From contig JBBQTF010000003.1 of NCBI GenBank assembly GCA_038234675.1, positions 59,360-123,359 on the forward strand: 64,000 nucleotides of DNA, read 5' to 3'. This document shows, piece by piece, positions 4,839 to 64,000 of this stretch. A model generated the notes under the pieces. It did not search any database, was not told where the DNA came from, and worked only from the letters and a program-made list of their open reading frames with translations. The stretch is from Steroidobacterales bacterium (GTDB lineage: Bacteria > Pseudomonadota > Gammaproteobacteria > Steroidobacterales > Steroidobacteraceae). The position numbers were made by a program, and so were the translations under genes. Each line of letters opens with the position of its first letter. Position 1 is the stretch's first letter.

Positions 4839-7280
<2,442 letters not shown>

Positions 7281-7523
7281 CGCGCGGCTCCGGCGGCGTC
7301 GGGCGCCAGTGACTTCACACCATTCCATCGTGCGGGGTCGGCAACATGCGCACGCCGGATGGACATTAGCTGTCTTGCGGCGGCGCGCGCACAACCCCAC
7401 CCGGCGTGCTTTACTGACGTAAGGGTTTCAGCAATGATGTTTGCATACCGTGGCGGGCAGGCGTGCAACAGGGGCGGCGGCGACGTTGCTGACCGACACT
7501 CCGGCAGGACCGGCAAGGCAAAC

Positions 7524-7857
7524 ATGACTATTGCTTATGCTCTCGAGCCCAATCTCGCAGCCGCGGAGTTTCGCATGCTTTGCAATGGGGACGTCATCGT
7601 CACAGCGCGCGATGGCGAGCGCTTGATGGGCGTGACCAGGGCGATTACTGATTTTGCGTACTGCTGCGACCTATCGGATTTGGGGGATCGATGTCGCCTA
7701 CCAGCGCCAGGGCATAGGCAATCAACTGGTGGCGGAGACCCAGAGCGCGGCAGGGGAGAGGGCCTTATTGATGCTCATCTTGATGCTCATCGCCGCCCCG
7801 GCCGCGGAGGTTTATTATTCGAAGATCGGCAGGCAACAGATCAAAGCGCCTGGCTAA
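7524..7857 (+). pseudogene. GNAT-family N-acetyltransferase, frameshifted and apparently shortened
   Basis: Frame 1 (from the ATG at 7524) reads ...VIVTARDGERLMGVTRAITDFAYCCDLSDLG. Frame 2 continues IDVAYQRQGIGNQLV...AAPAAEVYYSKIG, the acetyl-CoA Q/RxxGxG motif. The switch falls in a G5 run at 7682..7686. The N-terminal part is shorter than usual for GNAT domains. Confidence 0.6.
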
Positions 7858-7902
7858 TTTCCACGAAGCGGCTAGCGGTGGGCGCCCGTTAAGTTCATAT
7901 CC

Positions 7903-9075
7903 ATGCCAGAAGCAGCCGTCAACGCAGATCCCACCGCCGGGCCCTACAATGGCCTCAAGCAGCTTGAGCACACGCTGGAGAGCTCCTGGTATTTCGACGC
8001 GCTTCATTACCAGCGCGAACTGTCCGGCATATGGCGACGTAACTGGGTGTACCTGTGCCGCGTCGATTCGCTCCCCGCTGCGCCATCATTCCGGAGCTTC
8101 AGCATCGGCGACCAGCCGGTGTTGCTAGTCCGCGACCAGGGGGGCGAAGTGAGAGCCTTCTACAACACCTGCCGGCATCGCGGTTCGATGCTCTGTGCGG
8201 CTCCTTCCGGGCGCCTGCCGACCGGCCAAATTACTTGCCCTTACCATGCCTGGAGCTACCGGCTCGATGGCTCGGTTGCAAAGATTCCCTCCAAGCGCCC
8301 GGAAGGGTACCTCGATACGCAGCAGCTTTCGCTGTACCCGATCGCGCTGAAGAATTGGCGCGGATTCCTCTACGTGAGTCTCGCTGCCGACTCGAATCCG
8401 TCCGCGGAGCATTTTAATGCGAACCGCGACACCTTTGGCAACTGGCCACTCGAGGAGCTGGCGGTCGGGCGCACGCTCACCAAGCGCCTCAACTGCAACT
8501 GGAAAATATTCTGGGAAAACTACAACGAATGTCTGCATTGCCCGGGTGTGCACCCGGCCTTGAGCAACCTGGTGCCCATCTACAAGCGCGGCATTATGGA
8601 ACCGCGCGACGATCCTGACTGGCGCGCGCACGCGGCAGCGGATGACCCGTGCTATGCCGGCGGCCTGCGACGCGGAGCTGAGACCTGGTCGCTCGACGGG
8701 CAGATCGTGGGCGCGCGCTTCGCGCGACTGACCGAAGAGGAAACGCGGCTCGGCTATCACTACATGACGAGTCTGCCTTCGCACTACGTGGTGTTGCATG
8801 TCGATCACGTGCGCTCCACACGTGTGCTGCCGCTGGGCCCGGAGTCGACCGAGCTGGAGATCGAATGGTTGTTTCCACGCGAGACACTGGCCGACCCGAA
8901 GGTGGACATCGGCCGCGCCTGCGACTTTTCCGCCCAGGTGATGGCCGAGGACGGGGCGGCGTGCGAGCTGGCCCAGCAGGGCCTGCACGCGGCGCCGCAT
9001 GTGCAAGGCCGGCTCCTGCCCGAGGATTACGACGTCTATCGATTCCAGCAATGGGTGCGCCAGCAGCTGAGCTGA
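7903..9075 (+). CDS. Rieske (2Fe-2S) non-heme iron oxygenase, alpha-subunit type
   Basis: 390 aa. It has the Rieske motif CRHRG...CPYHAWSY and the mononuclear-iron motif ENYNECLHCPGVH. No partner reductase or beta subunit is adjacent. Confidence 0.85.
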   Translation: MPEAAVNADPTAGPYNGLKQLEHTLESSWYFDALHYQRELSGIWRRNWVYLCRVDSLPAAPSFRSFSIGDQPVLLVRDQGGEVRAFYNTCRHRGSMLCAAPSGRLPTGQITCPYHAWSYRLDGSVAKIPSKRPEGYLDTQQLSLYPIALKNWRGFLYVSLAADSNPSAEHFNANRDTFGNWPLEELAVGRTLTKRLNCNWKIFWENYNECLHCPGVHPALSNLVPIYKRGIMEPRDDPDWRAHAAADDPCYAGGLRRGAETWSLDGQIVGARFARLTEEETRLGYHYMTSLPSHYVVLHVDHVRSTRVLPLGPESTELEIEWLFPRETLADPKVDIGRACDFSAQVMAEDGAACELAQQGLHAAPHVQGRLLPEDYDVYRFQQWVRQQLS

Positions 9076-9123
9076 ACGTCGAAAGAGGCGGTACAGTTTA
9101 TTAATCCACCCGCCCTCGATGTA

Positions 9124-10041
9124 GTGCTGCTGCTCTTGACGTTCGTGCTCGGCGCACTGCTGTCGCGCGTGAGCCTGTGCGCGGTCGCGGGAATGCAGCA
9201 AGCCGTTGCTTACGGCGATCTCACTGGCTTGAAGCGTTTAACACTCGCCACCTGCGGCGCGGGGCTGAGCCTATTGCTGCTGGCCGGCCTGCTGCCCGGG
9301 CAGGTTCGGCTGCCAAATGACATGCACTTGCACCTGAGCCTGATCGCGGGCGCTGTGTTGCTGGGACTTGGCGCGATGATTAACGGCGGCTGTTATCTGG
9401 GCAGCGTGCTGTACCTAGGAACGGGCAACCTCAATTTTCTGTTTACGCTCCTTGGACTGGGACTGGGTCTGCGTGGTGCCGCCGTGTGGTCGCCGCTCCC
9501 CTTTGCCGCGACGCCGATGTTCCGCATGGCGATGGGCTATCTGTGGATGGCGGGGCTGGGAGCGTTTGTGATTCTCATCGTCGTCCTCACTTGGCGCGGG
9601 CGTGGCAAGGGACAGTGGCTGGCACTGTGCGCAGGGCTGCTGGCCGGACTGGTGTACGCACGCCACCCCAACTGGAGCTATGGCTCAGCGCTCGAGGCGC
9701 TGGCGCGAGGACACACCGCTCTGACGCACTGGCGCGCACATGTCCCGGCATTCGCTCTATTCGCGGGTGCCATCGGCGCCGGCATTGTTGGCGGTCGGTT
9801 TAATCTTAAGTGGCCCAAGCCGGCGCGCGCGCTGCGCTGCCTTAGCGGTGGTGCGATCATGGGCTGCGGCGCGGCGCTGATTCCGGGAGGCAACGACAGT
9901 CTGCTGTTATGGGCCATACCGGGACTAACTGCGTATGGCGCGGTGGCCTTCGGCCTCATGCTCGGGGTGATGGCTGCGGGCTTCGGACTCTCGGCGCGCT
10001 GGCCGCGTGCCGCGGGTGGCCCGCAGACCCCGGGACAGTAA
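9124..10041 (+). CDS. YeeE/YedE-like polytopic membrane protein (sulfur-compound transporter family)
   Basis: 305 aa with a GTG start and many TM segments. It has a duplicated layout with conserved Cys loops (INGGCYLGS, IMGCGAALIPGGND). Confidence 0.5.
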   Translation: MLLLLTFVLGALLSRVSLCAVAGMQQAVAYGDLTGLKRLTLATCGAGLSLLLLAGLLPGQVRLPNDMHLHLSLIAGAVLLGLGAMINGGCYLGSVLYLGTGNLNFLFTLLGLGLGLRGAAVWSPLPFAATPMFRMAMGYLWMAGLGAFVILIVVLTWRGRGKGQWLALCAGLLAGLVYARHPNWSYGSALEALARGHTALTHWRAHVPAFALFAGAIGAGIVGGRFNLKWPKPARALRCLSGGAIMGCGAALIPGGNDSLLLWAIPGLTAYGAVAFGLMLGVMAAGFGLSARWPRAAGGPQTPGQ

Positions 10042-10050
10042 ACTAACGAC

Positions 10051-10554
10051 ATGCCACAGACCGCCAACCCCTATCACGCCCGCAGCCTGGATGGTCTGCG
10101 GCTCATCGGCCTGATCAAGCTCGGCAAGGCTGCGCTGGTGCTGGCCACTACTTATGGACTGTACCGGCTGCGCAAGCCGGACGTAGTTGACCATTTGTAT
10201 GACTGGCTCTACACGCTGACCGATAGTTTCGAGCGACGGCTCCTCGAACGGGGACTCGATTGGGTGGGCTCGCTTGGAGCCGACCGCATTCACAACATCG
10301 TCCTCGCCACGAGCGTGTATACGGGGATCCTTCTGGCCGAGGGCATAGGTCTGTGCATGCGCAAGACCTGGGCCGAGTGGTTTACGGTGGTCGCATCGGC
10401 CTCGCTGATTCCCTTCGAGCTATGGCACCTCTTCTCTGGTACACGCCACAACACGGCGGCGGTGCTGGCCGCGACGGTACTCAACGTGGCCATCGTGATC
10501 TATCTGGTGCGGGTCTTGCTGCGAGCACGTCGCGCGCGCCTGCGGCAGGCGTGA
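10051..10554 (+). CDS. DUF2127-like small membrane protein
   Basis: 167 aa with 3-4 TM helices. The pattern LRLIGLIKLGKAALVL...LAEGIGLCMRKTWAEW is typical of this family. Its TGA overlaps the next ATG (GTGATGG). Confidence 0.55.
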   Translation: MPQTANPYHARSLDGLRLIGLIKLGKAALVLATTYGLYRLRKPDVVDHLYDWLYTLTDSFERRLLERGLDWVGSLGADRIHNIVLATSVYTGILLAEGIGLCMRKTWAEWFTVVASASLIPFELWHLFSGTRHNTAAVLAATVLNVAIVIYLVRVLLRARRARLRQA

Positions 10555-12068
10555 TGGCGAGCAAATCCCCTCTGCGGGCCCTGGCGCTGCTGGCGCTGGT
10601 ATTGGCCGCGCTCGCCGGATCGCTGATCGCGCGTCGATCCATGGGACACCCCATAGCGCTGTCCGCGGTCGCACCCGATGTGCTGCGATTGGGCCACCTG
10701 ACGCTCGAGCCTTGTACGATTGGTCGTGCGAATGCCGGCATCGCGACCGCGCGTGCCTATTGCGCGGCCGTGCCCGTTCCGGAGAACCGGCGCGCAGCGA
10801 ACGGCCGCGCGCTGCGCCTCAAGGTGGCCGTTGTGCCATCCGAGTCCGCACAGCCCGACGCCGATCTGATCGTATTTCTCGATGGCGGACCAGGCGGGGC
10901 CGCGACCGAGGATTATCCGGCCCTGGCGCCGGCCTTCGCGCCACTGCGTAAGCGCCATGCAGTGCTCCTCATCGATCAGCGCGGCACCGGCGGTTCCAAT
11001 CCGCTGGATTGCGGCAAGGACGAGAGCACCGATGCGGCGCCCAACCTCGAGCAGCTCAGGGCGTGCCTGCAAGAGCTCGCGCCTCACGCGGCCCCGGAGT
11101 TCTACACCACAAGCGCTGCGGTGGAAGATCTGGAGGCGGTGCGCCGCACGCTCGGCAGCCCGCCGCTGGATCTGCTGGCCGTGTCCTACGGCACGCGCGT
11201 GGCGCAGCAGTACGCACGCCAGTACGGCACGGCGGTTCGCGCCATGGTGCTCGATGGCGCGGTGCCCAACACGCTTGCCCTCGGGAGCGAGCATGCCGCT
11301 AACCTTGAGGCGGTGCTGCGCGACTTATCGGCACGTTGCCGCACGAGTGCGGCCTGCGCCGAGCGGTACGGTGATCCGTACCAGACACTGCGGCGGGTGC
11401 ACACGCGCCTGCGTACCGAGCCGCAGCGAGTCAGTCTGCGCGATCCGTACACCTTTCGCGTCCAGCAAAAACAAATGACGGCCGACGCGCTGGCGCAACT
11501 GGTGCGGATCTACGTCTACAGCCCCTACACAGCCGCGCTCCTGCCGTATGTACTGCAGCAGGCGGATCGCGGCGAGTACGCGCTGCTCATGGCACAGGCG
11601 CAGGTGGTGGTGGGAGATGTGGCCGAAAGTCTCTCCGGTGGCGTGGCCTTGTCGGTCAGCTGCGCGGAGGACGCTGATCGGTTGCGTGTCGATGCGTCCG
11701 CGGCCGACACGATCCTCGGCAACAGCCTGGTCAGCGCTTTGCTGAGCGCCTGTCCGCTGTGGCCTCACGGCGCGCGCCCCAAAGACTTCAGTGAACCGCT
11801 TCGCGGCTCGCTGCCCGTGCTGGTGCTTGCCGGCGAGCACGATCCGGTGACGCCGGCCCGGTACGGCGAGGCGATCGTGCAAACGCTCCCGCGCGCACGA
11901 TTGCTGAAGCTCGCCGGGCAGGGCCACGGCCTGCTGGCGGTGGGCTGCGTGCCACGGCTGGTGGAAGAGTTCGTCCGGACGTTGGACGCGCGCTCACTCA
12001 ATGCGCATTGCCTCGATGTCCTGGCTCAGGCCCCGCCCTTCGTGGATGCCAACGGAGCGGGTCCGTGA
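10554..12068 (+). CDS. secreted/anchored alpha/beta hydrolase, tripeptidyl-aminopeptidase (TAP)-like
   Basis: I use the internal ATG at 10554 (MASKSPLRALALLALVLAALAG, a signal-like N-terminus) rather than the tracked 10260 start, which overlaps the upstream gene. It has FLDGGPGG, a nucleophile elbow AVSYGT and a TAP-like C-terminal region. Confidence 0.7.
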   Translation: MASKSPLRALALLALVLAALAGSLIARRSMGHPIALSAVAPDVLRLGHLTLEPCTIGRANAGIATARAYCAAVPVPENRRAANGRALRLKVAVVPSESAQPDADLIVFLDGGPGGAATEDYPALAPAFAPLRKRHAVLLIDQRGTGGSNPLDCGKDESTDAAPNLEQLRACLQELAPHAAPEFYTTSAAVEDLEAVRRTLGSPPLDLLAVSYGTRVAQQYARQYGTAVRAMVLDGAVPNTLALGSEHAANLEAVLRDLSARCRTSAACAERYGDPYQTLRRVHTRLRTEPQRVSLRDPYTFRVQQKQMTADALAQLVRIYVYSPYTAALLPYVLQQADRGEYALLMAQAQVVVGDVAESLSGGVALSVSCAEDADRLRVDASAADTILGNSLVSALLSACPLWPHGARPKDFSEPLRGSLPVLVLAGEHDPVTPARYGEAIVQTLPRARLLKLAGQGHGLLAVGCVPRLVEEFVRTLDARSLNAHCLDVLAQAPPFVDANGAGP

Positions 12069-13995: not shown

Positions 13996-14709
13996 ATGTG
14001 TGGACGTTTCGTGTCTCGTGAACAAGCCGCGCTCGAGCGCGAATACAACATCAAGGTCCGTAAGCCGTTTGAACGGGTCTACAACGCCGCGCCGACCATG
14101 ATGCTGCCGGTTATCCGGCAGGAATCGGGAAAACCTCGCGACCAGCGCGAGGCCGTCGGGATGCGCTGGGGGCTCATTCCCAGCTGGTGGTCACAACCCG
14201 CCCTGCCGAACTCGACCATCAATGCGCGATGCGAGGAGGCCGCCGCGAAGCCGATGTGGCGTGGTTCCCTGCGGCACACCCGCTGCCTGGTGCCGGCGCT
14301 CGGATGGTATGAGTGGCATACGACCCCCGATGGCAAGGTACCTTATTTCTTTCACGCTCCAGGAAAGGCAGGGATCTGTTTTGCCGGGCTGTGGTCGGAG
14401 TGGCGAAATCCGGCCGGGGAGCCGCAGCTGAGTTTTGCCATATTGACCCGGGCGGCAGCCCCGACCTTCAGTTTCGTGCATCACCGAATGCCGCTGGTTT
14501 TGGGGCCGGAAGCCTGGGACGGCTGGCTTGCGGATTGGCCCGGGGACCCTGCGCCCCGCCTGGAAGAGCAGGCCGCGGCCGCGCCGAGCGAGTTCGAGTA
14601 TTACCCCGTGAGCCGGTACGTTAATACGCCGCGCAACCAGGGCGAGCGTTGTATCGAACCGGCAACAAACCAAGGGCCGAGCAGCACTGAAAACCGCACT
14701 GGAGCTTAG
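13996..14709 (+). CDS. SOS response-associated peptidase (SRAP/YedK family, abasic-site processing)
   Basis: 237 aa. It has the N-terminal MCGRF with the Cys2 nucleophile, plus INARCEE and the WYEW motif. Confidence 0.9.
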   Translation: MCGRFVSREQAALEREYNIKVRKPFERVYNAAPTMMLPVIRQESGKPRDQREAVGMRWGLIPSWWSQPALPNSTINARCEEAAAKPMWRGSLRHTRCLVPALGWYEWHTTPDGKVPYFFHAPGKAGICFAGLWSEWRNPAGEPQLSFAILTRAAAPTFSFVHHRMPLVLGPEAWDGWLADWPGDPAPRLEEQAAAAPSEFEYYPVSRYVNTPRNQGERCIEPATNQGPSSTENRTGA

Positions 14710-14843: not shown

Positions 14844-16085
14844 GTGCAGGTGGAGCGCATTATGAGCGGAGTTTTATCGGGCCCGAGAGGTCGAAAGCCT
14901 TCTCGTCGGCTTCTTATTGGGATCGCGATAGCGGTTGTCCTGGGACTGGCCTTGGGCGGGTGGCGCATGACAAGAGCGCCAGCCGCTGGCGACGCCATGG
15001 CCAAGGAAAAGGACGGCCCGACGCCGCCGTTGGTGACCGTCGTGGTGCCGGCCATGGGCAATGTGGCCACCACCGTGTCACTGACCGGACTGATCAGCGC
15101 CCAGAATGACATGCCGATCGGCGTTGAGGGCGATGGTGGGCGCGTGGCCGCCGTGCTGGTAGAGCCCGGCGATCATGTAAAGCGCGGGCAGGTGCTGGCG
15201 CGACTCAACCCGCTCACGGCCCAGTCCGTGGTGGAAAGCGCGCAAGCTTCGCTTGAAGAACTCAAGGCCGCGGCGGCCTCCTCGCAGGCCGAATATGCGC
15301 GCGCGGAAAAGGCCCGCGATTCATTCTCGGTCGAGGAATTCGAACGGCGCCGCACCAACGCGCTCACGGCGCTGGCCAAGGCCAAGGCCTCTGAGGCTCA
15401 ATTGGCCGAGGCGCGCACGCGCTGGCAGCGCATGACCGTGCTGGCGCCGAGCGACGGCATCGTGCTGACGCGTGCCGCCGAAGTGGGCCAGATTGCGATG
15501 CCCGGCTCACCGCCCTTGTTCCGTCTCGCGCGTGATGGTGCGATCGAGATGCGCGGTGAGGTGGCCGAGCAGGATATGCCGCGTCTCAAGGTGGGACAGA
15601 CCGCCACGGTGCGTCTGGATGGAGTGGCCCAGCCGTTCGTCGGCAAGGTGTGGCAGATCGGTGCGGTCATCGACGGGGTGACCCGCCAGGGGACGGTACG
15701 AATTTCGCTTCCCAACGAGGATCACAATTTGCGCCCGGGCGCTTTCGCTCGCGCCGATATCCAGGCCGACGCCATGGTCGGGGTGATCCTGCCCCAGACA
15801 GCGGTCCTGAGCGATGATCAGGGGACCTACACGCTGATTGTCGGTGCGAATGACAAGGTCGAGCGGCGCGCGATCAACGTGGTTGGGGCGCGCGCTACCG
15901 GATTGCTGGTGGACAGCGGCCTTAACGGCAATGAGCGAGTGGTCGCGGTGGCCGGAGCGTTCCTGCGGACCGGCGAGCAGGTCAAGGTCGCCCCCATCGC
16001 GGTGGCCGCCGGGGGTTCCGGAGACAGTGGCAAGAATGTAAGTGTCGTGGCGGGCAACGCGGGTGCCGCGGTGAGTCCGCCATGA
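14844..16085 (+). CDS. RND efflux periplasmic adaptor (membrane fusion protein)
   Basis: 413 aa with a GTG start and an N-terminal anchor. It has the lipoyl/coiled-coil/beta-barrel pattern and overlaps the RND permease start by 4 nt. Confidence 0.9.
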   Translation: MQVERIMSGVLSGPRGRKPSRRLLIGIAIAVVLGLALGGWRMTRAPAAGDAMAKEKDGPTPPLVTVVVPAMGNVATTVSLTGLISAQNDMPIGVEGDGGRVAAVLVEPGDHVKRGQVLARLNPLTAQSVVESAQASLEELKAAAASSQAEYARAEKARDSFSVEEFERRRTNALTALAKAKASEAQLAEARTRWQRMTVLAPSDGIVLTRAAEVGQIAMPGSPPLFRLARDGAIEMRGEVAEQDMPRLKVGQTATVRLDGVAQPFVGKVWQIGAVIDGVTRQGTVRISLPNEDHNLRPGAFARADIQADAMVGVILPQTAVLSDDQGTYTLIVGANDKVERRAINVVGARATGLLVDSGLNGNERVVAVAGAFLRTGEQVKVAPIAVAAGGSGDSGKNVSVVAGNAGAAVSPP

Positions 16086-56948: not shown

Positions 56949-58784
56949 ATGTGCGGAATAGTCGGGGCGATTGCCGGGCGCGATGTGGTGCCGCTGCTGA
57001 TCGAAGGCCTGAAGCGCCTTGAGTACCGAGGCTACGATTCGGCCGGCCTGGCCGTGGTCGACGCCGATGGGCAGATGTGCCGCCTGCGCACCGTCGGGAA
57101 GGTGCGAGCCCTGGAAGATGAGCTTGCCGCGACGCCCACCTCAGCTCCCCTTGGCATCGCACACACCCGCTGGGCAACACACGGAGCGCCGAGCGAGCGC
57201 AATGCGCATCCGCATATATCGCGCGACGGGCTTGCAGTGGTGCACAACGGCATCATCGAAAATTATGAAGAGCTGCGCAAGGAGCTGAAGGCCGTTGGCT
57301 ACGCGTTTGACTCCGAGACCGACACCGAAGTCATCGCACACCGGATCCACTTTCAAATGCGGCGCCTAGCCGATTTGTACAAGGCGGTCCGCGCCACCGT
57401 CGTAGAACTGGAAGGCGCCTACGCCCTCGCGGTGATAAGCCAACAGGACCCCAGTCGGATCATCCTTGCTCGCATGGGATGTCCGGCCGTCATCGGTTTT
57501 GGGCGGCACGAAAATTACATTGCCTCGGACGTGGCCGCGCTCCTGCCGGTCACGCGAAGTTTTACCTTTCTCGAAGAAGGCGACGTGGCCGAGATCACCC
57601 GCGAGGGCGTGCGTATCGTCGATCGTGAAGGCAACCAAGCCGTGCGCGCCGTGCGCGAAAGCGAGTTATCGGCGGACGCGGCCGAGAAGGGTCCCTACCA
57701 GCACTATATGCTCAAAGAGATCCACGAGCAGCCTCGCGCCGTCGCTGACACCTTGCAGGCGCGTGTTGCCAATGGGCACCTGCTCGAAGCCGCATTTGGT
57801 CCGGACGCTCCGGAGATTTTTGGGCGCACGCAAGGGGTGCATATCGTCGCTTGCGGCACCAGCTTTCACGCCGGCATCGTGGCGCGCTACTTTATCGAGC
57901 AGTATTGCCGTATACCCTGCCGCGTCGAGATTGCCAGCGAATACCGGTACCGCAATCCGGTTGTACAGAAAAAATCGCTGCTGGTAACGATCTCGCAATC
58001 CGGAGAGACGGCGGACACGCTCGCTGCGATGCGCCTTGGCAAGCAACTGGGGTATCTGGCGACGCTCGCGATCTGCAATGTACCGGAAAGTTCGCTGGTA
58101 CGGGAAGCGGACCTGGTGATGCTGACGCGGGCCGGCCCCGAGATCGGCGTCGCCTCGACCAAGGCATTCACGACGCAGCTGTCTGCTCTGGGCATGCTCG
58201 TTATCGCACTTGCCCGCCATAATGGCGGCGACGCTGAGAGCGAACGTGGCTTGGTCAATCGGTTGATCGAGCTGCCGGGCATGATAGAGAGAACTCTGGA
58301 ACTCGATCCGATGATAGAAAAACTCGCCCCGCGATTCGCCGAGAAGCAGCACGCTCTTTTCCTGGGTCGCGGTGCATTGCATGCGGTGGCCCTCGAAGGT
58401 GCGCTCAAGCTCAAGGAAATTTCCTACATCCATGCCGAAGCTTATGCGGCCGGGGAGCTCAAGCATGGCCCGCTCGCACTGGTGGACGCAGACATGCCGG
58501 TAATTACCGTGGCGCCCAACAACCAGCTGCTTGAGAAGCTCAAATCGAACCTGATGGAAGTGCGAGCGCGCGGTGGCGAGCTCTACGTATTCGCGGATCC
58601 CGACTCAGGATTTCAGTCCAGTGACGGCGTGCACGTCATACAGATGCCCAGAAACGTCGGGTATTTCCAGGCGCCGGTCGTGTACACGATTCCACTTCAA
58701 CTGCTTGCCTACCATGTGGCTATCCTGCGCGGCACCGATGTCGATCAACCGCGAAATCTTGCCAAGAGCGTCACGGTAGAGTAA
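56949..58784 (+). CDS. glmS: glutamine--fructose-6-phosphate aminotransferase
   Basis: 611 aa with the N-terminal MCGIVG nucleophile, two SIS domains and the C-terminal ...LAKSVTVE. Confidence 0.98.
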   Translation: MCGIVGAIAGRDVVPLLIEGLKRLEYRGYDSAGLAVVDADGQMCRLRTVGKVRALEDELAATPTSAPLGIAHTRWATHGAPSERNAHPHISRDGLAVVHNGIIENYEELRKELKAVGYAFDSETDTEVIAHRIHFQMRRLADLYKAVRATVVELEGAYALAVISQQDPSRIILARMGCPAVIGFGRHENYIASDVAALLPVTRSFTFLEEGDVAEITREGVRIVDREGNQAVRAVRESELSADAAEKGPYQHYMLKEIHEQPRAVADTLQARVANGHLLEAAFGPDAPEIFGRTQGVHIVACGTSFHAGIVARYFIEQYCRIPCRVEIASEYRYRNPVVQKKSLLVTISQSGETADTLAAMRLGKQLGYLATLAICNVPESSLVREADLVMLTRAGPEIGVASTKAFTTQLSALGMLVIALARHNGGDAESERGLVNRLIELPGMIERTLELDPMIEKLAPRFAEKQHALFLGRGALHAVALEGALKLKEISYIHAEAYAAGELKHGPLALVDADMPVITVAPNNQLLEKLKSNLMEVRARGGELYVFADPDSGFQSSDGVHVIQMPRNVGYFQAPVVYTIPLQLLAYHVAILRGTDVDQPRNLAKSVTVE

Positions 58785-58818
58785 ATCCGGTTTCCAAATC
58801 GACACTCGCGCCTAGCGG

Positions 58819-59121
58819 TCAAGTGGGCTGCGTGTTATGCGCCGGTTGTGTGGGTGCGACAAGGGAAACGCCAAAAGCTCCAAAGTAAGGGCTGGGAAGT
58901 ATGCAGCGCCAAGGATTTGTGGGGCTGACCGAGCTGGGGCACTCGTGAGCACCCGAACACGCCTCCATACCCATTAGACATGCCGCCCACTGCGCAATCA
59001 GTGGCAAAAGTTGCCCGCGCCGCACCGTCCCACGCAGGCGTTCGGGGCCGACCGCATCTACACCGTGCACTGAAAACACGTTCTTTGCCAAACGAATCCC
59101 GACAGTAGTAACGTTGTTCAT
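58819..59121 (-). mobile_element. IS110-family transposase remnant (N-terminal ~60-90 codons only, decayed)
   Basis: From the ATG at 59121 it reads MNNVTTVGIRLAKNVFSVHGVDA...LMGMEACSGAHE, matching the IS110 DEDD-domain N-terminus. The first catalytic Asp is replaced (GIRLAK versus the usual GIDLAK). Downstream of about 58940 only frame-hopping traces remain (PxxYxxxF). The rest of a ~330-400-aa transposase is absent. Confidence 0.7.
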
Positions 59122-59207
59122 GTCCCCTTCTCGTTGATGATTGAACATGCACACTCACGTCAATCTTGGCACTTCGCCCGCTTCGGGAGGGGGAAAGACT
59201 TACATTC

Positions 59208-59214
59208 GTTATAC
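59208..59214 (+). other. possible attC R'-type core (GTTATAC) upstream of the first cassette ORF
   Basis: It is the exact reverse complement of the GTATAAC box at 59712. It lies between the IS110 remnant and the VOC ORF. One position deviates from GTTRRRY. Confidence 0.25.
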
Positions 59215-59265
59215 GCGAGGTGCGCTATGCACGTGCCTCAGCGGAGAAGTGAGTAACGGGAAGAT

Positions 59266-59787
59266 ATGACGCTTAAACGGATGGACAACGTCCTCATCGT
59301 TGTCGACGATCTCGAAGCCGCCCAGGCCTTCTTTATCGAACTGGGCCTCGATGTGGAGGGCGAAACGACGGTCGAAGGGCCATTGATCGGGAGACTGATC
59401 GGAGTCAAGGATGTCCGGGCCGCCGTGGCGATGATGCGGGCCCCCGATGGGCAGGGCATTGAGCCGGATAAGTTTCACACGCCCAACGCGGTGAGGTGCG
59501 GTCCTTTTGACGCACCGGTGAATACGCTGGGCCTTCGTCGCGTCATGTTCGCCGTCGATGACATCGACGCTGGCATTGCGCAGATGCGCGACCAGGGGGC
59601 CGAGCTTATTGGCCAAATGCAGTATGAGGACTCGTACCGCCTGGCCTTCATCCGTGGGCCGAGGGCATCATTGTCGCACTTGCCGAGCAGCTCGGCGGGC
59701 GCGTGCCTGGCGTATAACCCCTCCATCGAGCGCACATCCAAAAGCCTGCTTGGCAGCCTTTTGGCTGCCGCTCATATCGAACGTTAG
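59266..59787 (+). pseudogene. VOC (glyoxalase/bleomycin-resistance fold) protein with a C-terminal frameshift
   Basis: The N-terminus reads MDNVLIVVDDLEAAQAFFIELGL...RRVMFAVDDIDA. After ...AFIRGP the tracked frame gives unrelated RASLSHLPSSS. The +1 frame gives the expected EGIIVALAEQLGGRVPGV and stops at TAA 59715..59717. The shift falls at GGGCC near 59656..59660. Confidence 0.7.
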
Positions 59788-59789
59788 AC
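59712..59789 (+). other. attC-like recombination site (78 nt)
   Basis: The R'' is GTATAAC (59712-18) and the R' is GTTAGAC (59783-89), pairing 6/7. ATCGAGCG (59725-32) pairs with CGCTC.ATAT (59769-77) with bulges. The apical stem CCAAAAGCCTG / CAGCCTTTTGG is 10/11 with a 5-nt loop. Unpaired 5-6-nt spacers lie on both sides. The upstream ORF stop sits inside the R'' and the next ORF starts 3 nt after the R'. Confidence 0.55.
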
Positions 59790-59792
59790 ATC

Positions 59793-60542
59793 GTGAACAC
59801 AATCAACGTCATCGCCCCGTACAGATACCACGGCACGTGGGTTTTTGACGATCCACGAGTCGATTTAGTTCAAGAGCCTTTTATCAGTGGCGCCGATACC
59901 CTGATTGATCTTGCCGTGGCAAACATCGGCGGTGCCGATCGCGGGTTTTTCCTAATATTCTCGTGCGAGCACTTTCCTGGCTACGTAATCCAATTGACCT
60001 GGTGTCGTTCCGATATGCTTGGAAATTGGTACTACTCGGAAAGCCTTGACCATGAAGCATGGCTCTGTCCTGCGCTGTTGAAGTATTTTGACGATGTTCC
60101 TAAAGCATTGTATTTGCAGTGCAAGGCGAAACCCGAAGATGCCAAACATCCGTCGGATTGGTCCGTGGAAGGACAGCAATGCATCGCAGCTCGCCACTGC
60201 GACTCTAATGAGCCGGCGCTGCCAGTCCGGCCGCGTGGCTCGGCCGCTCATCTCATGCCTAGAGAGCCTGCGCACGTCATGCCAGACCCATACTTATCGC
60301 CATCACATCCATTAGGAGCCCCCGCATGGCTGCGACTTACCGCAGTACTCATTCTTTTCCTCATTGTCATAGGGAACCTCATGTTCGTTACGATGGGACT
60401 ACTTAATGGCATCAGACCACGTAGATATGTATTCCTTTTCTCGGTATGGGTCATGGGGATTACGGGGCTCGTGATGCTCGCTCGGCTTTGGCGTGCGCTG
60501 GTTTTGCAGCGAGTGTCACCGCCAAGCGAGCCGCCCACGTGA
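59793..60542 (+). CDS. small conserved protein of unknown function (N-terminal ~115 aa) read through into a 2-TM tail
   Basis: It has a GTG start. The sequence MNTINVIAPYRYHGTWVFDDPRVDLVQEPFISGADTLIDL...GNWYYSE...EAWLCPALLKYFDDVPKALYLQCKAK looks like a widespread ~115-aa DUF-type family, as far as I recall. The remaining 130 aa are a low-complexity linker plus two TM helices. An in-frame ATG is at 60255. Confidence 0.55.
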   Translation: MNTINVIAPYRYHGTWVFDDPRVDLVQEPFISGADTLIDLAVANIGGADRGFFLIFSCEHFPGYVIQLTWCRSDMLGNWYYSESLDHEAWLCPALLKYFDDVPKALYLQCKAKPEDAKHPSDWSVEGQQCIAARHCDSNEPALPVRPRGSAAHLMPREPAHVMPDPYLSPSHPLGAPAWLRLTAVLILFLIVIGNLMFVTMGLLNGIRPRRYVFLFSVWVMGITGLVMLARLWRALVLQRVSPPSEPPT

Positions 60543-60763
60543 CGTCACTGGTTGTCTACCTACCGGGTCGCCCGCAGGGGCGCCAACGGTTCGATAAGGT
60601 CGGGGAGCGTCGATGATCGTAGTAAAAGAGTGTCGTCTAGGTCCGAGAGCGTCGCTCCGCGGTCAAGTGGAGCGCTTGGTGGCACATGGTCTGCACCCGG
60701 GCATCATCGCCGGGCCCGCGGTGGCCCATTTCGAGCACCGTGCCCGCGGCACGCATGCGGAGC

Positions 60764-60770
60764 GTTAGAT
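60764..60770 (+). other. attC R'-type core GTTAGAT
   Basis: It matches GTTRRRY and lies 4 nt upstream of the ATG at 60775. I could not define the 5' half of the site cleanly. Candidates are GTCTAGG at 60634 and CGCCAAC at 60581. Confidence 0.35.
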
Positions 60771-60774
60771 CGCC

Positions 60775-61155
60775 ATGCCCCAAGCGCCTCTCTTAGCCAT
60801 TATCGCCGGATGCTCCGCTGGAGTTATCGGAGGATACCTTTTTACTAAGGCGATCATTCTGTGGCTCTCCCGAAGCTGCGCCAGGCCAGGTCTAGTCGCG
60901 TTGCTTGCCACTGTGGGCGCGCTAGCCGCTTTGGTGCCCGCCTTCTTCTTAAGTATCTTTGTGGGAGACACTCTGGGCGGGGGATTCGGGCAGATGACAA
61001 ACCACATTCTCGGTCTAGAAACATTCGGTGTACCCGTTGGGCTTGGCTTGGGATTGGCCCTTATCCTCGCTGTGATAACCGGCTGCGGTGCGCTAGCCGG
61101 AGCAGCGATTGCACGATTTATTGCCGCCCGTCACCCACCTCGTGCAGTGCTCTAA
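60775..61155 (+). CDS. small hypothetical membrane protein (4 predicted TM)
   Basis: 126-aa Gly/Ala/Leu-rich hydrophobic ORF. Its stop TAA is embedded in CTCTAAC (61150-61156). Confidence 0.5.
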   Translation: MPQAPLLAIIAGCSAGVIGGYLFTKAIILWLSRSCARPGLVALLATVGALAALVPAFFLSIFVGDTLGGGFGQMTNHILGLETFGVPVGLGLGLALILAVITGCGALAGAAIARFIAARHPPRAVL

Positions 61156-61473
61156 CAACGCATGGAGCGCCCCGTAGTACTATGTTCGCTGCGGTGCACG
61201 GACGGGTGGTTGCACACTTGGCTCACTCACTCATTTGCTCGATGGCTCAGCGCTCCCCGCCAGGGTTCGCCTCAATATGTACCCGCGAGTGCAAGCCTGC
61301 CGAATCCGATGGGCCGCAGGGCGTCTAACGATCGGATCGACTGCTACAGCGGCCCCAATTGCTCCGGATAGGCCGGCGAGAGGGGTCGATGATCGGCATA
61401 AATGAACTTCGTACTGTTTTGGGGGCGCCGCGCCCCGGTCAACCGGAGCGCGAGGCGTCATCGGGGTTATCGA

Positions 61474-61818
61474 ATGATTGAGACCTCGTGCCACTGCGGA
61501 TCAGTAGTGGTCCAGATCCCCCGGAGGCCGCGCACGATCACAGAATGCAACTGCTCGATCTGCAGGCGTTACGGCGCCCTCTGGGCCTACTACGCGCTGG
61601 GTGAAATCCAAGTCCGTGGGAAGCGCGGATCGACTTCCTCGTACATTTGGGGAGACGGAAGTATTCGCTTTGTTCGATGTCGGCGTTGCGGCTGCGTTAC
61701 CCACTGGGCAGCAGCGGCGAAGGCGGCCGCCGGGCGGGTCGGTGTAAATATGCGCAATGCTGATCAGCTCGTCATAAGGACAGCGCGCATTAGATACGTC
61801 GACGGGTCTTCCATGTAA
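61474..61818 (+). CDS. GFA/CENP-V family zinc-binding protein
   Basis: The internal Met gives MIETSCHCGSV...CNCSICRRYGALW...RFVRCRRCGCVTHW, the Cys pattern of the glutathione-dependent formaldehyde-activating (GFA) fold. Confidence 0.75.
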   Translation: MIETSCHCGSVVVQIPRRPRTITECNCSICRRYGALWAYYALGEIQVRGKRGSTSSYIWGDGSIRFVRCRRCGCVTHWAAAAKAAAGRVGVNMRNADQLVIRTARIRYVDGSSM

Positions 61819-62069
61819 GGGTCTAGACCGAAATTATTCCTTGTTTGCACTGGGGGCAGAGCAGAGGCGAAAATTCGCAGAGGCGACGGGAAAATCCTAC
61901 GTGTTGTACATTGAGAATACCCAGCCTAAAAAGGCGTTCGGTCGGTCCCTGAAGCGTAGTCGTTGGCGCGCTGTGAGCGCGTCTGTAAATTGTGCACCCT
62001 CGGCGCGCCAGTGCGGCCAGCTCGCGGCCGCTAACCGCGAACGCTGGACATTAGCATTGAGGTAAAGGT

Positions 62070-62576
62070 GTGACGTCCCGTCGAATAGTGGTCAATGACC
62101 TGATGCAACAGAACTACGTCTACCTGGTGACGGAGTCTATGGGACAGAATTTCCACCCTGATTTTGGTCCTGAACTTATTCCGAAGGAGATGCTGGACCT
62201 TGGCGTGTTCGGCGGCAAATATATGACCGACTGCGCCGCGGAGTACCCTGACAATTGGTTCGTAAACGCCAAGCTGTGCCCAGAGCGTCACGACCCCGAA
62301 ATGAACTTCTTTGGCGTGAATGCCTCGCAACCGCTTTCTTCTTGGATAGCCGGGGGGTGGATATACGCCGAGGATCCGCGGGGCTGGTTTCAATGGTATT
62401 GCCGATACTTCCTTGGGCGGCGCTGTCCAGATGACGGGCGCCAGATTCAACGGTGGAAAGCCATGCGGCGTCACGCGGCCCAGGTTAAGAAACACTGCGA
62501 GCCAGCTGACTTGAACTGCCGGCGCAAGCAGAGGCAGGCGCTTCTCCACTGGGCGTATGACTCGCGCAAGATATGA
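62070..62576 (+). CDS. conserved hypothetical protein
   Basis: 168 aa with a GTG start. It has well-structured non-repetitive sequence with distinctive blocks (GVFGGKYMTDC, DPRGWFQWYCRYFLGRR, RQIQRWKAMRRH). I cannot assign a family. Confidence 0.55.
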   Translation: MTSRRIVVNDLMQQNYVYLVTESMGQNFHPDFGPELIPKEMLDLGVFGGKYMTDCAAEYPDNWFVNAKLCPERHDPEMNFFGVNASQPLSSWIAGGWIYAEDPRGWFQWYCRYFLGRRCPDDGRQIQRWKAMRRHAAQVKKHCEPADLNCRRKQRQALLHWAYDSRKI

Positions 62577-62746
62577 TCGAACGGGTGACACCGCGCATGC
62601 GCCATGTCGAACAGTCTGACCGACTCCAGCGGACCACCCGCGGCGCCGCCCGCCCGCCGAACCTGAAGTTTAGCGTCAAAGGAAGCGCACTCGACTATGC
62701 CCCCAGAAATCAATCCCCCGGGTGCCCGGGCGGCCTCATGCGAACT

Positions 62747-62753
62747 GTTAGAG
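62747..62753 (+). other. attC R'-type core GTTAGAG
   Basis: This is a GTTRRR core 10 nt upstream of the ATG at 62764. Candidate R'' boxes are ATCGAAC (62576, touching the upstream stop) and GCCGAAC (62656). Confidence 0.35.
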
Positions 62754-62763
62754 GGCGCGTCAA

Positions 62764-63258
62764 ATGACGAGAGCGCTTGTACTTGCTGCTATGGGCGTCG
62801 GCCTTGCTTGGCTTTACATGTGGGTGGTCCCGGTGGCGACGATTTACGCTGGGGCGCTGTCCGTTCCTGCTTGGTGGGGGCCGCTTTTCACTTCACGCAG
62901 TAGTGGAATACTTACTTGGCTGGTCACCGTCCACACGTTGGCAGTGCTCTTTGCATCGCTGCCGTTTGCATTAGCGATTGATTTTATTTACGGACGTGCG
63001 GGAGTGTGGGTGGCACTGGGGATAACGATCGGAGTGTACTCTCTGACGACACTGCCAAGCGCCGCTAGTTATTTCGGCACCAGTGCGCTTCGTTTAAAGG
63101 CGGTCACGCTTTTCGATGCCGTAAAGTTAATCGGCCTCCTACCCGCGCTGGTATGGGTAATTTATACGCTGCCTTCTAACTACCGCGTCGAGCGCCGGGG
63201 AAAACCTAGAATGCCAACCTCAGATGTCGGCGCCCGCGGCACTCGTGCGGAACGCTAG
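62764..63258 (+). CDS. hypothetical membrane protein (4-5 TM)
   Basis: 164-aa hydrophobic ORF with a basic C-terminal tail. No family was recognised. Confidence 0.5.
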   Translation: MTRALVLAAMGVGLAWLYMWVVPVATIYAGALSVPAWWGPLFTSRSSGILTWLVTVHTLAVLFASLPFALAIDFIYGRAGVWVALGITIGVYSLTTLPSAASYFGTSALRLKAVTLFDAVKLIGLLPALVWVIYTLPSNYRVERRGKPRMPTSDVGARGTRAER

Positions 63259-63627
63259 GCACTCGCGCGCCGGAAACGCTAGCCGTACCCTAATGAATCT
63301 TCGGAAGAAGGGATCGACCATCTACTTTGAAGTAGCCTATATCCACGCCGTGTATGATTCGCCGCGGTCCTAATGGCGTCATTTCCATGCAGAGCCGCAC
63401 TCTGTCAACCGCCCTCCGAAGTCCGAATTGTGGCGGGCGGAATTCACCGGTCCTGATGGAATCCAGCTGGCGCGTCAATGCAATAGAGCAGTTGCGGGCG
63501 CAATAACCGCACCGAGGGCGCGTATGAACGTTAAAATACCGAACTCAGCGTGAGTGCGCGCGGCGCTTATACGGAGCGGAAGGCCTCCGCTTCGCGCAGC
63601 CAAGTTGATCAACTGAGAGAGAACCTC

Positions 63628-63993
63628 ATGCCTCGCAGTATAATTCGGACTGCCGATGCTCCGCCTTCGCCTGCCACATACAGTCAGGCGGTCAAAGGCG
63701 GCGGGCTCGTCTTCGTGTCGGGCACAGGCCCCTTCGAGCTCGGCACCGGCAAGGCCAGGGGTGAAATAATTCAGGAGCAAACGCGCCGATGCCTGACCAA
63801 CACCTTCGGAATCCTTAGTGCAGCAGGAATTTCATTGGACGAAGCAGCGAGCGCAATTGTCATTTTGCTCGAAGAGGAGGACTTTTCAGGCGTGAACGAG
63901 GAGTGGGTGAAGTGGTTTCCGGCAAATCCGCCGGCGCACCAAGCTACCAAGCTACCCGTCCGGATCCCAGGCGTCCTATGCAACCTCCAATAG
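63628..63993 (+). CDS. RidA/YjgF/TdcF-family protein (reactive-intermediate deaminase fold)
   Basis: The internal Met gives MPRSIIRTADAPPSPATYSQAVKGGGLVFVSGTGP...IQEQTRRCLTN. The C-terminus (...PGVLCNLQ) looks a few residues shorter or more divergent than usual. Confidence 0.7.
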   Translation: MPRSIIRTADAPPSPATYSQAVKGGGLVFVSGTGPFELGTGKARGEIIQEQTRRCLTNTFGILSAAGISLDEAASAIVILLEEEDFSGVNEEWVKWFPANPPAHQATKLPVRIPGVLCNLQ

Positions 63994-64000
63994 TTTTCGA

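Follow-up and report, generated by a model that had tools for sequence, protein, structure and literature searches.

A degenerating gene-cassette array 3' of glmS in a Steroidobacterales bacterium, probably left behind by the loss of its integron integrase

The superintegron of Vibrio cholerae with its V. cholerae repeats (VCRs) is a sedentary chromosomal integron with homogeneous attC repeats. Here we report on an array of small genes directly 3' of glmS in a 64,000-nt stretch of a Steroidobacterales bacterium (assembly GCA_038234675.1, contig JBBQTF010000003.1, positions 59,360 to 123,359; hereafter the window) and on integrons at the same site in related genomes. Clusters of attC sites lacking an integron-integrase (CALINs; Cury et al. 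2016, PMC4889954) are common, and their origin is usually unknown. The loss of the integrase gene intI and insertion sequence (IS) elements are among the proposed origins; in this founding survey 15 of 279 CALINs (~5 %) had a recognisable intI pseudogene nearby, in a test that needed more than 50 % profile coverage. The closest analogue of the present locus is the ilvD integron of Xanthomonas, anchored downstream of that gene (Gillings et al. 2005), for which the summary in PMC12444791 describes an intI often inactivated by frameshifts or deletions and some lineages that keep only cassettes or genes without a recognisable attC. Among IS elements, ISKpn4 and ISPst6 of the IS1111-attC group insert in attC sites, according to the account in PMC11187229 (citing Tetu & Holmes 2008; Post & Hall 2009).

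The 5.2-kb island that follows the glmS stop codon (58785-64000) is very probably the cassette array of a sedentary chromosomal integron 3' of glmS, turned into a CALIN by integrase loss and now degenerating. The element is a clear case of a known kind, not a new kind. Five full-length attC sites and two halves share one strand without a neighbouring intI, the boxes of neighbouring cassettes follow the crossover rule, and the genes are promoterless, co-oriented and mostly single ORFs (open reading frames) of unrelated families. The window thus shares with CALINs the lack of a nearby intI and of a sigma-70-like promoter, and its cargo is unrelated to resistance cassettes. Neither an intI gene nor an attI with a Pc promoter was found in the window; intI is present in the relatives. 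The locus differs from other CALINs in that its origin is legible from the ~23 nt that remain of intI and from the complete integrons of sister species at the same place; the stub is too short for the coverage test of PMC4889954, and most attC sites of the window are degenerate. An earlier note, made from the letters of the window alone, had proposed a cassette array that was either a CALIN or had lost its integrase. The array is borne out by significant covariance model (CM) matches to attC, all of them in the island and in array orientation, and of the two origins the loss is correct: ten relatives carry intI at the site where the window retains the stub.

The relatives are soil Steroidobacteraceae-like metagenome-assembled genomes (MAGs) obtained from a GlmS scan of species-representative genomes, with GlmS 74-93 % identical to that of the window (closest relative 93 % amino acid identity). 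Their glmS flanks were scanned with an IntI1 query, and the result was confirmed independently with NCBIfam and with a plasmid-annotated IntI1. In 10 related genomes glmS is directly followed by an IntI1-like gene of opposite orientation; in the sister species glmS is succeeded by this convergent intI, by attI and by cassettes oriented like glmS. Some 30 nt separate the stop codons of glmS and intI in the five closest genomes (L003, L004, L006, L039 and L074). In the more distant L005 (11836-12740) and L010 (11836-12000) the gaps between glmS and intI measure ~870 nt and ~130 nt, respectively. Both copies tested, the IntI of L039 and L074, matched TIGR02249 'integron integrase' with 465-473 bits at a cut-off of 265; annotated IntI1 and the L039 protein share 55.7 % identity, and by eye the relatives' IntI carry the IntI-specific insertion ALERKYP...WQYVFP. 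Behind a conserved attI region, which ends in TAGTAGTTAGG, 8-15 attC sites were counted per 10 kb, all oriented like glmS, and the arrays have the same lowered G+C content as the island of the window. The intI-attI region and scattered single cassettes are shared among the relatives. L039 (19082-19677) and L074 (14993-15588) have one cassette in common, with 98.7 % identity over 596 nt, at different array positions, and the intI-attI regions of these two genomes are only 84 % identical; the sequence comparison suggests a recent exchange or movement of this cassette. On the contigs of L007, L008 and L011, intI follows glmS and the contig ends ~150-300 nt further on. Assemblies probably break at the repeated attC, so the clade's integron arrays are likely under-represented in MAGs.

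The attC sites of the relatives are nearly homogeneous (mean identity to the consensus 89 %), with many closely spaced cassettes of like orientation, as in the V. cholerae superintegron; in contrast to the latter, the window copy is without integrase, and the relatives' arrays were seen over 10 kb. With the ilvD integron, as portrayed in the cited summary, the locus has in common a sedentary position at a conserved housekeeping gene throughout a clade and lineage-specific arrays. It differs from the Xanthomonas element in the anchor, a glmS convergent with intI, in the Steroidobacteraceae-like host, in the IntI1-like integrase (56 % identity) and in attC lengths of 88 and 128-134 nt. Between the array of the window and the 10-kb glmS flanks of the relatives there is no shared DNA stretch of 150 bp or more, thus the gene order of the island is not core synteny; conserved synteny was what the earlier note had named as a refutation of its proposal.

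In the window, DNA homology with the relatives stops at the glmS stop codon, except for 58808-58832, the 3' stub of intI. Its offset from the glmS stop equals that of intI in the five closest relatives, and it is 90 % identical over 21 nt to L004 11864-11884 (blastn). No IntI-like translation was obtained elsewhere in the 64-kb window or on the 11.7-kb contig L001, even at E 10, leaving an intI-free span around the array of 58.8 kb upstream and 6.1 kb downstream. The attI region of the relatives (...GGTTACAAATTCCCAACCATGTTAT...TAGTAGTTAGG) had no match in window positions 58600-59300. L001 is an independent Logan contig (run SRR19962015, 11.76 kb) that begins inside glmS and shows the same junction: glmS, IS remnant and 11 kb of array.

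Next to the stub lies a truncated IS of the IS110 family, recognised as a remnant already in the earlier note and matched by NCBIfam NF033542 (transpos_IS110) over profile positions 1-64 of 343 (E 9e-8). Its transposase starts at 59154; tblastn with the L004 transposase placed amino acids 1-60 at 59121-58942. At its non-coding end, ...GGGGGAAAGACTTACATTC is similar to the ...GGGGAACTCCCTTTTATTC with which the full-length copies in L003 and L004 end, and the outer end ...ACATTC at 59207 is flush against the first crossover box. The full-length IS110-family elements lie inside attC sites (L003 17040-18550, L004 19845-21356) and encode a 356-aa transposase, which in L004 matches NF033542 with 323 bits and also PF01548 and PF02371. 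Their insertion point is identical, between the R'' box with its spacer and the L'' box; with one fixed position in attC, they behave as attC-targeting IS and in this respect resemble the IS1111-attC group as outlined in PMC11187229. The IS N-terminus of the window is 42-44 % identical to these copies. The window copy differs from the group in being truncated and in abutting a crossover box rather than the L'' side, and it is only a candidate member of that subgroup.

For the detection of degenerate sites, attC models were built from the relatives. Their main attC family is ~88 nt long, with the consensus GCCTAAC-AAC-CGCATCGAGCGC...GCGCTCATGCGG-AGC-GTTAGGC, and family lengths are 88 nt and 128-134 nt. 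An alignment of 50 attC sites (A1), on which the canonical bottom-strand pairing was imposed by hand (R box, unpaired spacer, L stem with one extrahelical base), gave the CM R1; iteration led to A2 with 81 sites in three length classes and to the CM R2. Both models contain only attC of the relatives, without any mobile-integron sequence, and were a substitute for the model of IntegronFinder. In A2, whose alignment to the model itself is a caveat on its structure statistics, the R-box and L-box stems were paired in 91 % of the cells versus 27-41 % for slid registers; the R helix was 85 % paired and the L stem 93.6 %, with one unpaired column within the stem. Compensatory changes were present in 13 of 16 L-stem pairs among the 81 sites, and the covariation score of 0.31 exceeded those of shuffles (0.10) and of slid registers (at most 0.08). 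With their variable loops the sites span 62-137 nt in all. The long-range hairpin did not emerge from RNAalifold on the 50-site alignment, and a guessed inner hairpin (columns 33-36 with 43-46) was dropped at 29 % paired. In two clinical class 1 integrons, R2 located attC sites correctly and on the proper strand, namely those of aadA1 (twice; 49.5 and 43 bits), cmlA5, aac(6')-Iq and arr-2. The glmS flanks of 52 genomes without a detected array (1.02 Mb) yielded no R2 match at E ≤0.01.

The five best R1 matches in the 64 kb (filters off) were all located in the island and in array orientation. Three CM matches were significant (59711-59790, 63173-63261 and 63497-63585), and R2 scored 48.2, 33.2 and 30.1 bits in the window. 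A sequence-only hidden Markov model (HMM) saw only two full window sites; the CMs added 59711-59790, and BLAST with the 134-nt subtype added the sites at 60554 and 61323. In total, the array comprises five full-length and two half attC sites in 3.9 kb, on the plus strand. The bottom strand of 59711-59790 folds into the canonical R-box/L-box hairpin (-19.6 kcal/mol, z -4.7, 0 of 200 shuffles as good). The long-subtype site 60554-60680 is 75 % identical over 125 nt to the L003 attC 14214-14347 (E 1e-15) and the site 61323-61456 is 73 % identical over 127-131 nt to L003 attC sites (E 1.7e-13), with a weak R2 match of 12 bits at 61322-61457. Both alignments to the 134-nt subtype end just before R', and the two stretches are mutual repeats within the island. 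Among the half sites, the right half with R' at 60764 belongs to a stretch (60688-60771) scoring 13.9 bits with R1. The probable left half at 61150 was the best-ranked nhmmer result above noise and resembles by eye, apart from one deletion, the L039 site GTCTAACAACCGCATGGAGCGC; the end ...CTCATGCGAACTGTTAGAG of 62722-62753 resembles the family end CTCATGCGGAGCGTTAG. The site 63498-63584 closes a 324-nt cassette without ORF.

In successive cassettes of the relatives, both variable positions of an R'' box agree with the reverse complement of the R' box before it in 74 % of the pairs, versus 20 % when the site's own R' box or random pairs are compared; this agreement is the footprint of the G|TT crossover. 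Seven pairs could be tested in the window and L001: four agree at both variable positions, three at one. The GTTATAC/GTATAAC pair that bounds the first cassette agrees even at a rare T/A variant position, and R'' GTCTACC at 60554 matches the reverse complement of R' GTTAGAC (59783) at both variable positions.

Decay is visible in the sites and in at least two of the genes. Of 84 sites in the relatives, 78 have AAC in R'' and 82 have GTT in R'; in the window only one of the five full-length sites has an intact GTT in R' (Fisher p 3e-5). Among these five, 59712-59789 alone keeps both R cores, and each of the remaining four lacks at least one of them. Window sites are 0.62-0.76 identical to the family consensus, versus a mean of 0.89 in the relatives. 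The earlier note had suggested to fold the bottom strand of the spacers: 59711-59790 is canonical, 63173-63261 retains the L stem only with an unpaired R box, at 63498-63584 the canonical hairpin is gone (z +0.45), and the other tested sites do not fold. A one-base repair of the frameshifted VOC gene lengthened the PF00903 match from profile positions 2-103 to 2-119 of 121 and raised its score from 26.4 to 31.3 bits, and the repaired frame ends at a TAA inside R''; the frameshift sequence is the same in L001. RidA covers only positions 2-101 of 121 of the PF01042 profile and overlaps the next gene. Several ORFs run through their attC and stop at the TAG of the R' box.

Table 1 Features of the glmS locus in the window, in order of position
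Feature	Position	Strand	Evidence
glmS	56949..58784	+	611-aa ORF; chromosomal anchor of the integron
intI 3' stub, stop codon and last ~7 codons	58808..58832	-	CTAGCGGTCAAGTGGGCTGCGTG aligns to the reverse complement of the relatives' intI end
Truncated IS110-family IS, 5' end and first ~60-70 transposase codons	58850..59207	-	left limit approximate
Crossover box GTTATAC, 5' boundary of first cassette	59208..59214	+	exact reverse complement of R'' GTATAAC at 59712
VOC/glyoxalase-fold cassette gene	59266..59717	+	Pfam Glyoxalase_4, Glyoxalase; frameshifted near codon 131
attC site 1, R'' GTATAAC ... R' GTTAGAC	59712..59789	+	R2 30.1 bits, E 4e-6; R1 20.7 bits
DUF6717 cassette gene	59793..60542	+	PF20475, 53.9 bits, residues 5-110; C-terminal membrane extension
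Long (134-nt) subtype attC, R'' GTCTACC, R' GCTTGGT	60554..60680	+	decayed
Right half of 88-nt-type attC, R' GTTAGAT	60739..60770	+	nhmmer positions 58-88, 20.2 bits, E 3.5e-5
Small membrane-protein cassette gene, 126 aa	60775..61155	+	ORF; stop codon inside CTCTAAC
Probable left half of 88-nt-type attC (CTCTAACAACGCATGGAGCGC...)	61150..61175	+	nhmmer positions 3-29, E 0.26; weak
Long-subtype attC, R'' GTCTAAC intact, R' GCGAGGC	61323..61456	+	decayed
GFA-family zinc protein cassette gene	61474..61818	+	PF04828, 35.1 bits
Hypothetical protein, 168 aa	62070..62576	+	ORF; identical protein on two Logan contigs
Possible right half attC, R' GTTAGAG	62722..62753	+	nhmmer positions 59-88, E 1.8; alone not significant
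Membrane-protein cassette gene, 164 aa	62764..63258	+	ORF runs through own attC
attC site, R'' TTCTAAC, R' mutated GCTAGGC	63174..63260	+	R1 52.4 bits, E 3e-13; R2 48.2 bits
attC site, both R boxes lost (GCGCAAT ... GGAAGGC)	63498..63584	+	R1 46.8 bits, E 1.6e-11; nhmmer 51 bits
RidA (L-PSP) cassette gene	63629..63993	+	PF01042; C-terminus truncated
GDCCVxC-domain gene start	63978..64000	+	leaves window; continues at L001 5568-5801, NF041374 (NCBIfam name), 101.9 bits

The history of the locus may be reconstructed as follows. IntI once inserted the cassettes at G|TT crossover points, to judge by the matching R' and R'' boxes. An IS110-family element most likely inserted at or near the array start, and one deletion would then have removed the 3' two-thirds of the IS together with attI and intI. 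Without integrase or Pc promoter, the array would no longer be maintained. Any remaining expression would need read-through from glmS, and such read-through appears possible, because the interval from glmS to the array contains no convincing terminator and no sigma-70-like promoter; a crude consensus scan gave 0 sigma-70-like sites versus 2.7 expected. The cassettes could be mobilised only by an integrase supplied in trans, and this would probably concern the VOC cassette alone.

Several observations weigh against a degenerate array that lost its integrase in this manner. The GFA cassette and the 168-aa hypothetical have no recognisable attC, and on L001 no attC was recognisable from 6100 to 11758 with R1, R2, nhmmer and a repeat search. 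As a standalone blastn match the ~23-nt stub is weak (E 0.12), therefore the argument depends on its conserved position. The lower scores of the window may partly express lineage divergence and not decay alone, because L010, which has intI, also scores lower (40-66 bits). That the IS insertion came before the deletion is a sequence of events we infer, and an integrase may be encoded elsewhere in the source genome, the search for IntI having covered the window and L001.

The position directly 3' of glmS led the earlier note to connect the island with attTn7, and the island could be the cargo of a Tn7-like transposon or of another island at this site, with motifs that are incidental or derive from a class 2-like integron. 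Tn7-like elements are recognised by tnsABC(D) and by paired ends with TnsB-binding repeats ~25 bp after glmS. A string at 58848, TGTGGGTGCGACAAGGG, is superficially like a Tn7 end; it was rejected as such, as the TGTGGG string falls inside the IS110 remnant region and the relatives leave no room for a transposon end, with only ~30 nt between glmS and intI in L003, L004, L006, L039 and L074. The link to Tn7 therefore did not hold. No tns genes were present among the ORFs of the island and L001, the Pfam and NCBIfam matches or the called genes, although no dedicated search for tns or TnsB sites was made. The integrase of the relatives is IntI1-like with 56 % identity in a comparison with IntI1 only, not with IntI2. 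We regard a Tn7-like origin as exceedingly improbable. An assembly or binning artefact at the junction of glmS, IS110 remnant and cassettes appears very unlikely as well: the relatives are MAGs and the source of the window probably is too, IS and attC repeats often break or mis-join assemblies, and the contigs of L007, L008 and L011 stop right after intI, but the independent Logan assembly of SRR19962015 has the same junction with 1 mismatch in 5590 nt, and an intI stub between glmS and the IS remnant is what a real deletion predicts.

An array that is still active, its intI relocated by a rearrangement or a second integron being present so that IntI shuffles the cassettes in trans, is unlikely, yet it has precedent in the survey of Cury et al. 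2016 (PMC4889954), where about half of the CALINs were on replicons encoding IntI and rearrangements can split integrons. The attC at 59711-59790 is intact and foldable, and the genome outside the window and L001 might encode an integrase. However, the 3' end of intI is still beside glmS, which points to a deletion and not to the relocation of a whole gene; the GTT core is lost in four of the five full-length attC sites and kept in nearly all sites of the integrase-bearing relatives; and neither the 64-kb window nor the 11.7-kb L001 encodes an IntI. We therefore maintain the reading of a former integron whose array decays after integrase loss.

The earlier note had listed seven short ORFs on the plus strand, and Pfam confirmed its assignments for four of them: VOC/glyoxalase, the small DUF-type protein (identified as DUF6717), GFA and RidA. 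These seven ORFs of the 5.2-kb island belong to families unrelated to each other. Both membrane proteins and the 168-aa hypothetical had no Pfam or NCBIfam match. The 164-aa membrane protein is 50 % identical over 131 aa to the L039 cassette ORF 15582-15968, after which the homologous attC comes next. DUF6717 covers residues 5-110 of a 249-aa ORF, whose C-terminal part resembles a two-helix membrane protein in the same frame; the ORF could be two former genes fused or carry a genuine extension. The start of the GFA gene was placed at ATG 61474 on account of a MIETSCHCG motif. After glmS the DNA is richer in A/T, as judged by eye before: the G+C content is ~0.57-0.58 (~0.575 overall) 3' of glmS versus ~0.62 before it, a modest but real drop. 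An Rfam 15 scan of 58000-64000 with E up to 10 gave one noise match only.

GTTAGA and its complement TCTAAC occur six times in the 5.2-kb island versus three times in the remaining 58.8 kb. All motifs of the earlier note were found at their positions: GTTAGAC 59783, GTTAGAT 60764, GTTAGAG 62747, GTATAAC 59712, CTCTAAC 61150, GTCTAAC 61323 and ATCGAAC 62576. The GTTAGA boxes lie 3, 4 and 10 nt before GTG 59793, ATG 60775 and ATG 62764, with no other on the plus strand of the island. Their reading as attC boxes was upheld in large part. Those at 59783 and 60764 are genuine R' boxes and 62747 is a plausible candidate; as R'' boxes, 59712, 61150 and 61323 are genuine or probable. ATCGAAC at 62576 is without support as R'' box, as 62576-62753 shows weak right-half resemblance only (E 1.8). 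The two best-preserved attC sites (63174-63260 and 63498-63584) and the two of the long type (60554-60680 and 61323-61456) had been overlooked.

The GDCCVxC gene begins within the truncated 3' end of RidA and exits the window, thus the array continues to the right. L001 extends 6.1 kb past the window and adds roughly twelve small ORFs of the same orientation (SnoaL, DUF5329, MAPEG, UDG, PEMT and others), and attC sites beyond the window were found at L001 5809-5895 and 6002-6086. The stretch 6100-11758 of this contig holds at least 10 co-oriented small ORFs (SnoaL, DUF5329, MAPEG, UDG, PEMT/ICMT and hypotheticals), nearly all missing from the flanks of the relatives; the sole match was SnoaL with 59 % in L038. 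It may be an older decayed part of the array or a different island. Short palindromes in the window at 62030-62056 and on L001 at 8237-8255 (GCTAAC-N14-ATTAGC and GCCTAAT-N5-ATTAGAT) are perhaps R'' and R' boxes joined by deletion of the attC interior.

In the window the intI stub marks the deletion and the IS110-family fragment its likely agent. The locus points to an undescribed clade-wide integron at glmS, which would be the second one anchored at a housekeeping gene after that at ilvD in Xanthomonas; the literature searched contained no description of a glmS-anchored integron or of integrons in Steroidobacteraceae genomes. We give an even chance to the wider proposal that an ancestral, vertically inherited integron is anchored at glmS in this soil Steroidobacteraceae-like clade, with an IntI1-like integrase, VCR-like attC sites and an attC-targeting IS110, and that the window genome is a natural integrase knock-out. 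For annotation, degenerate arrays are missed by sequence-only searches; a lineage-specific model combined with synteny recovers them. Arrays with and without integrase are paired here at one locus and could be used for studies of attC decay. If the proposal is true, the comparison with the sisters would measure the rate at which attC sites and cassettes decay after integrase activity ends, and would show whether the integrase actively maintains the homogeneity of attC.

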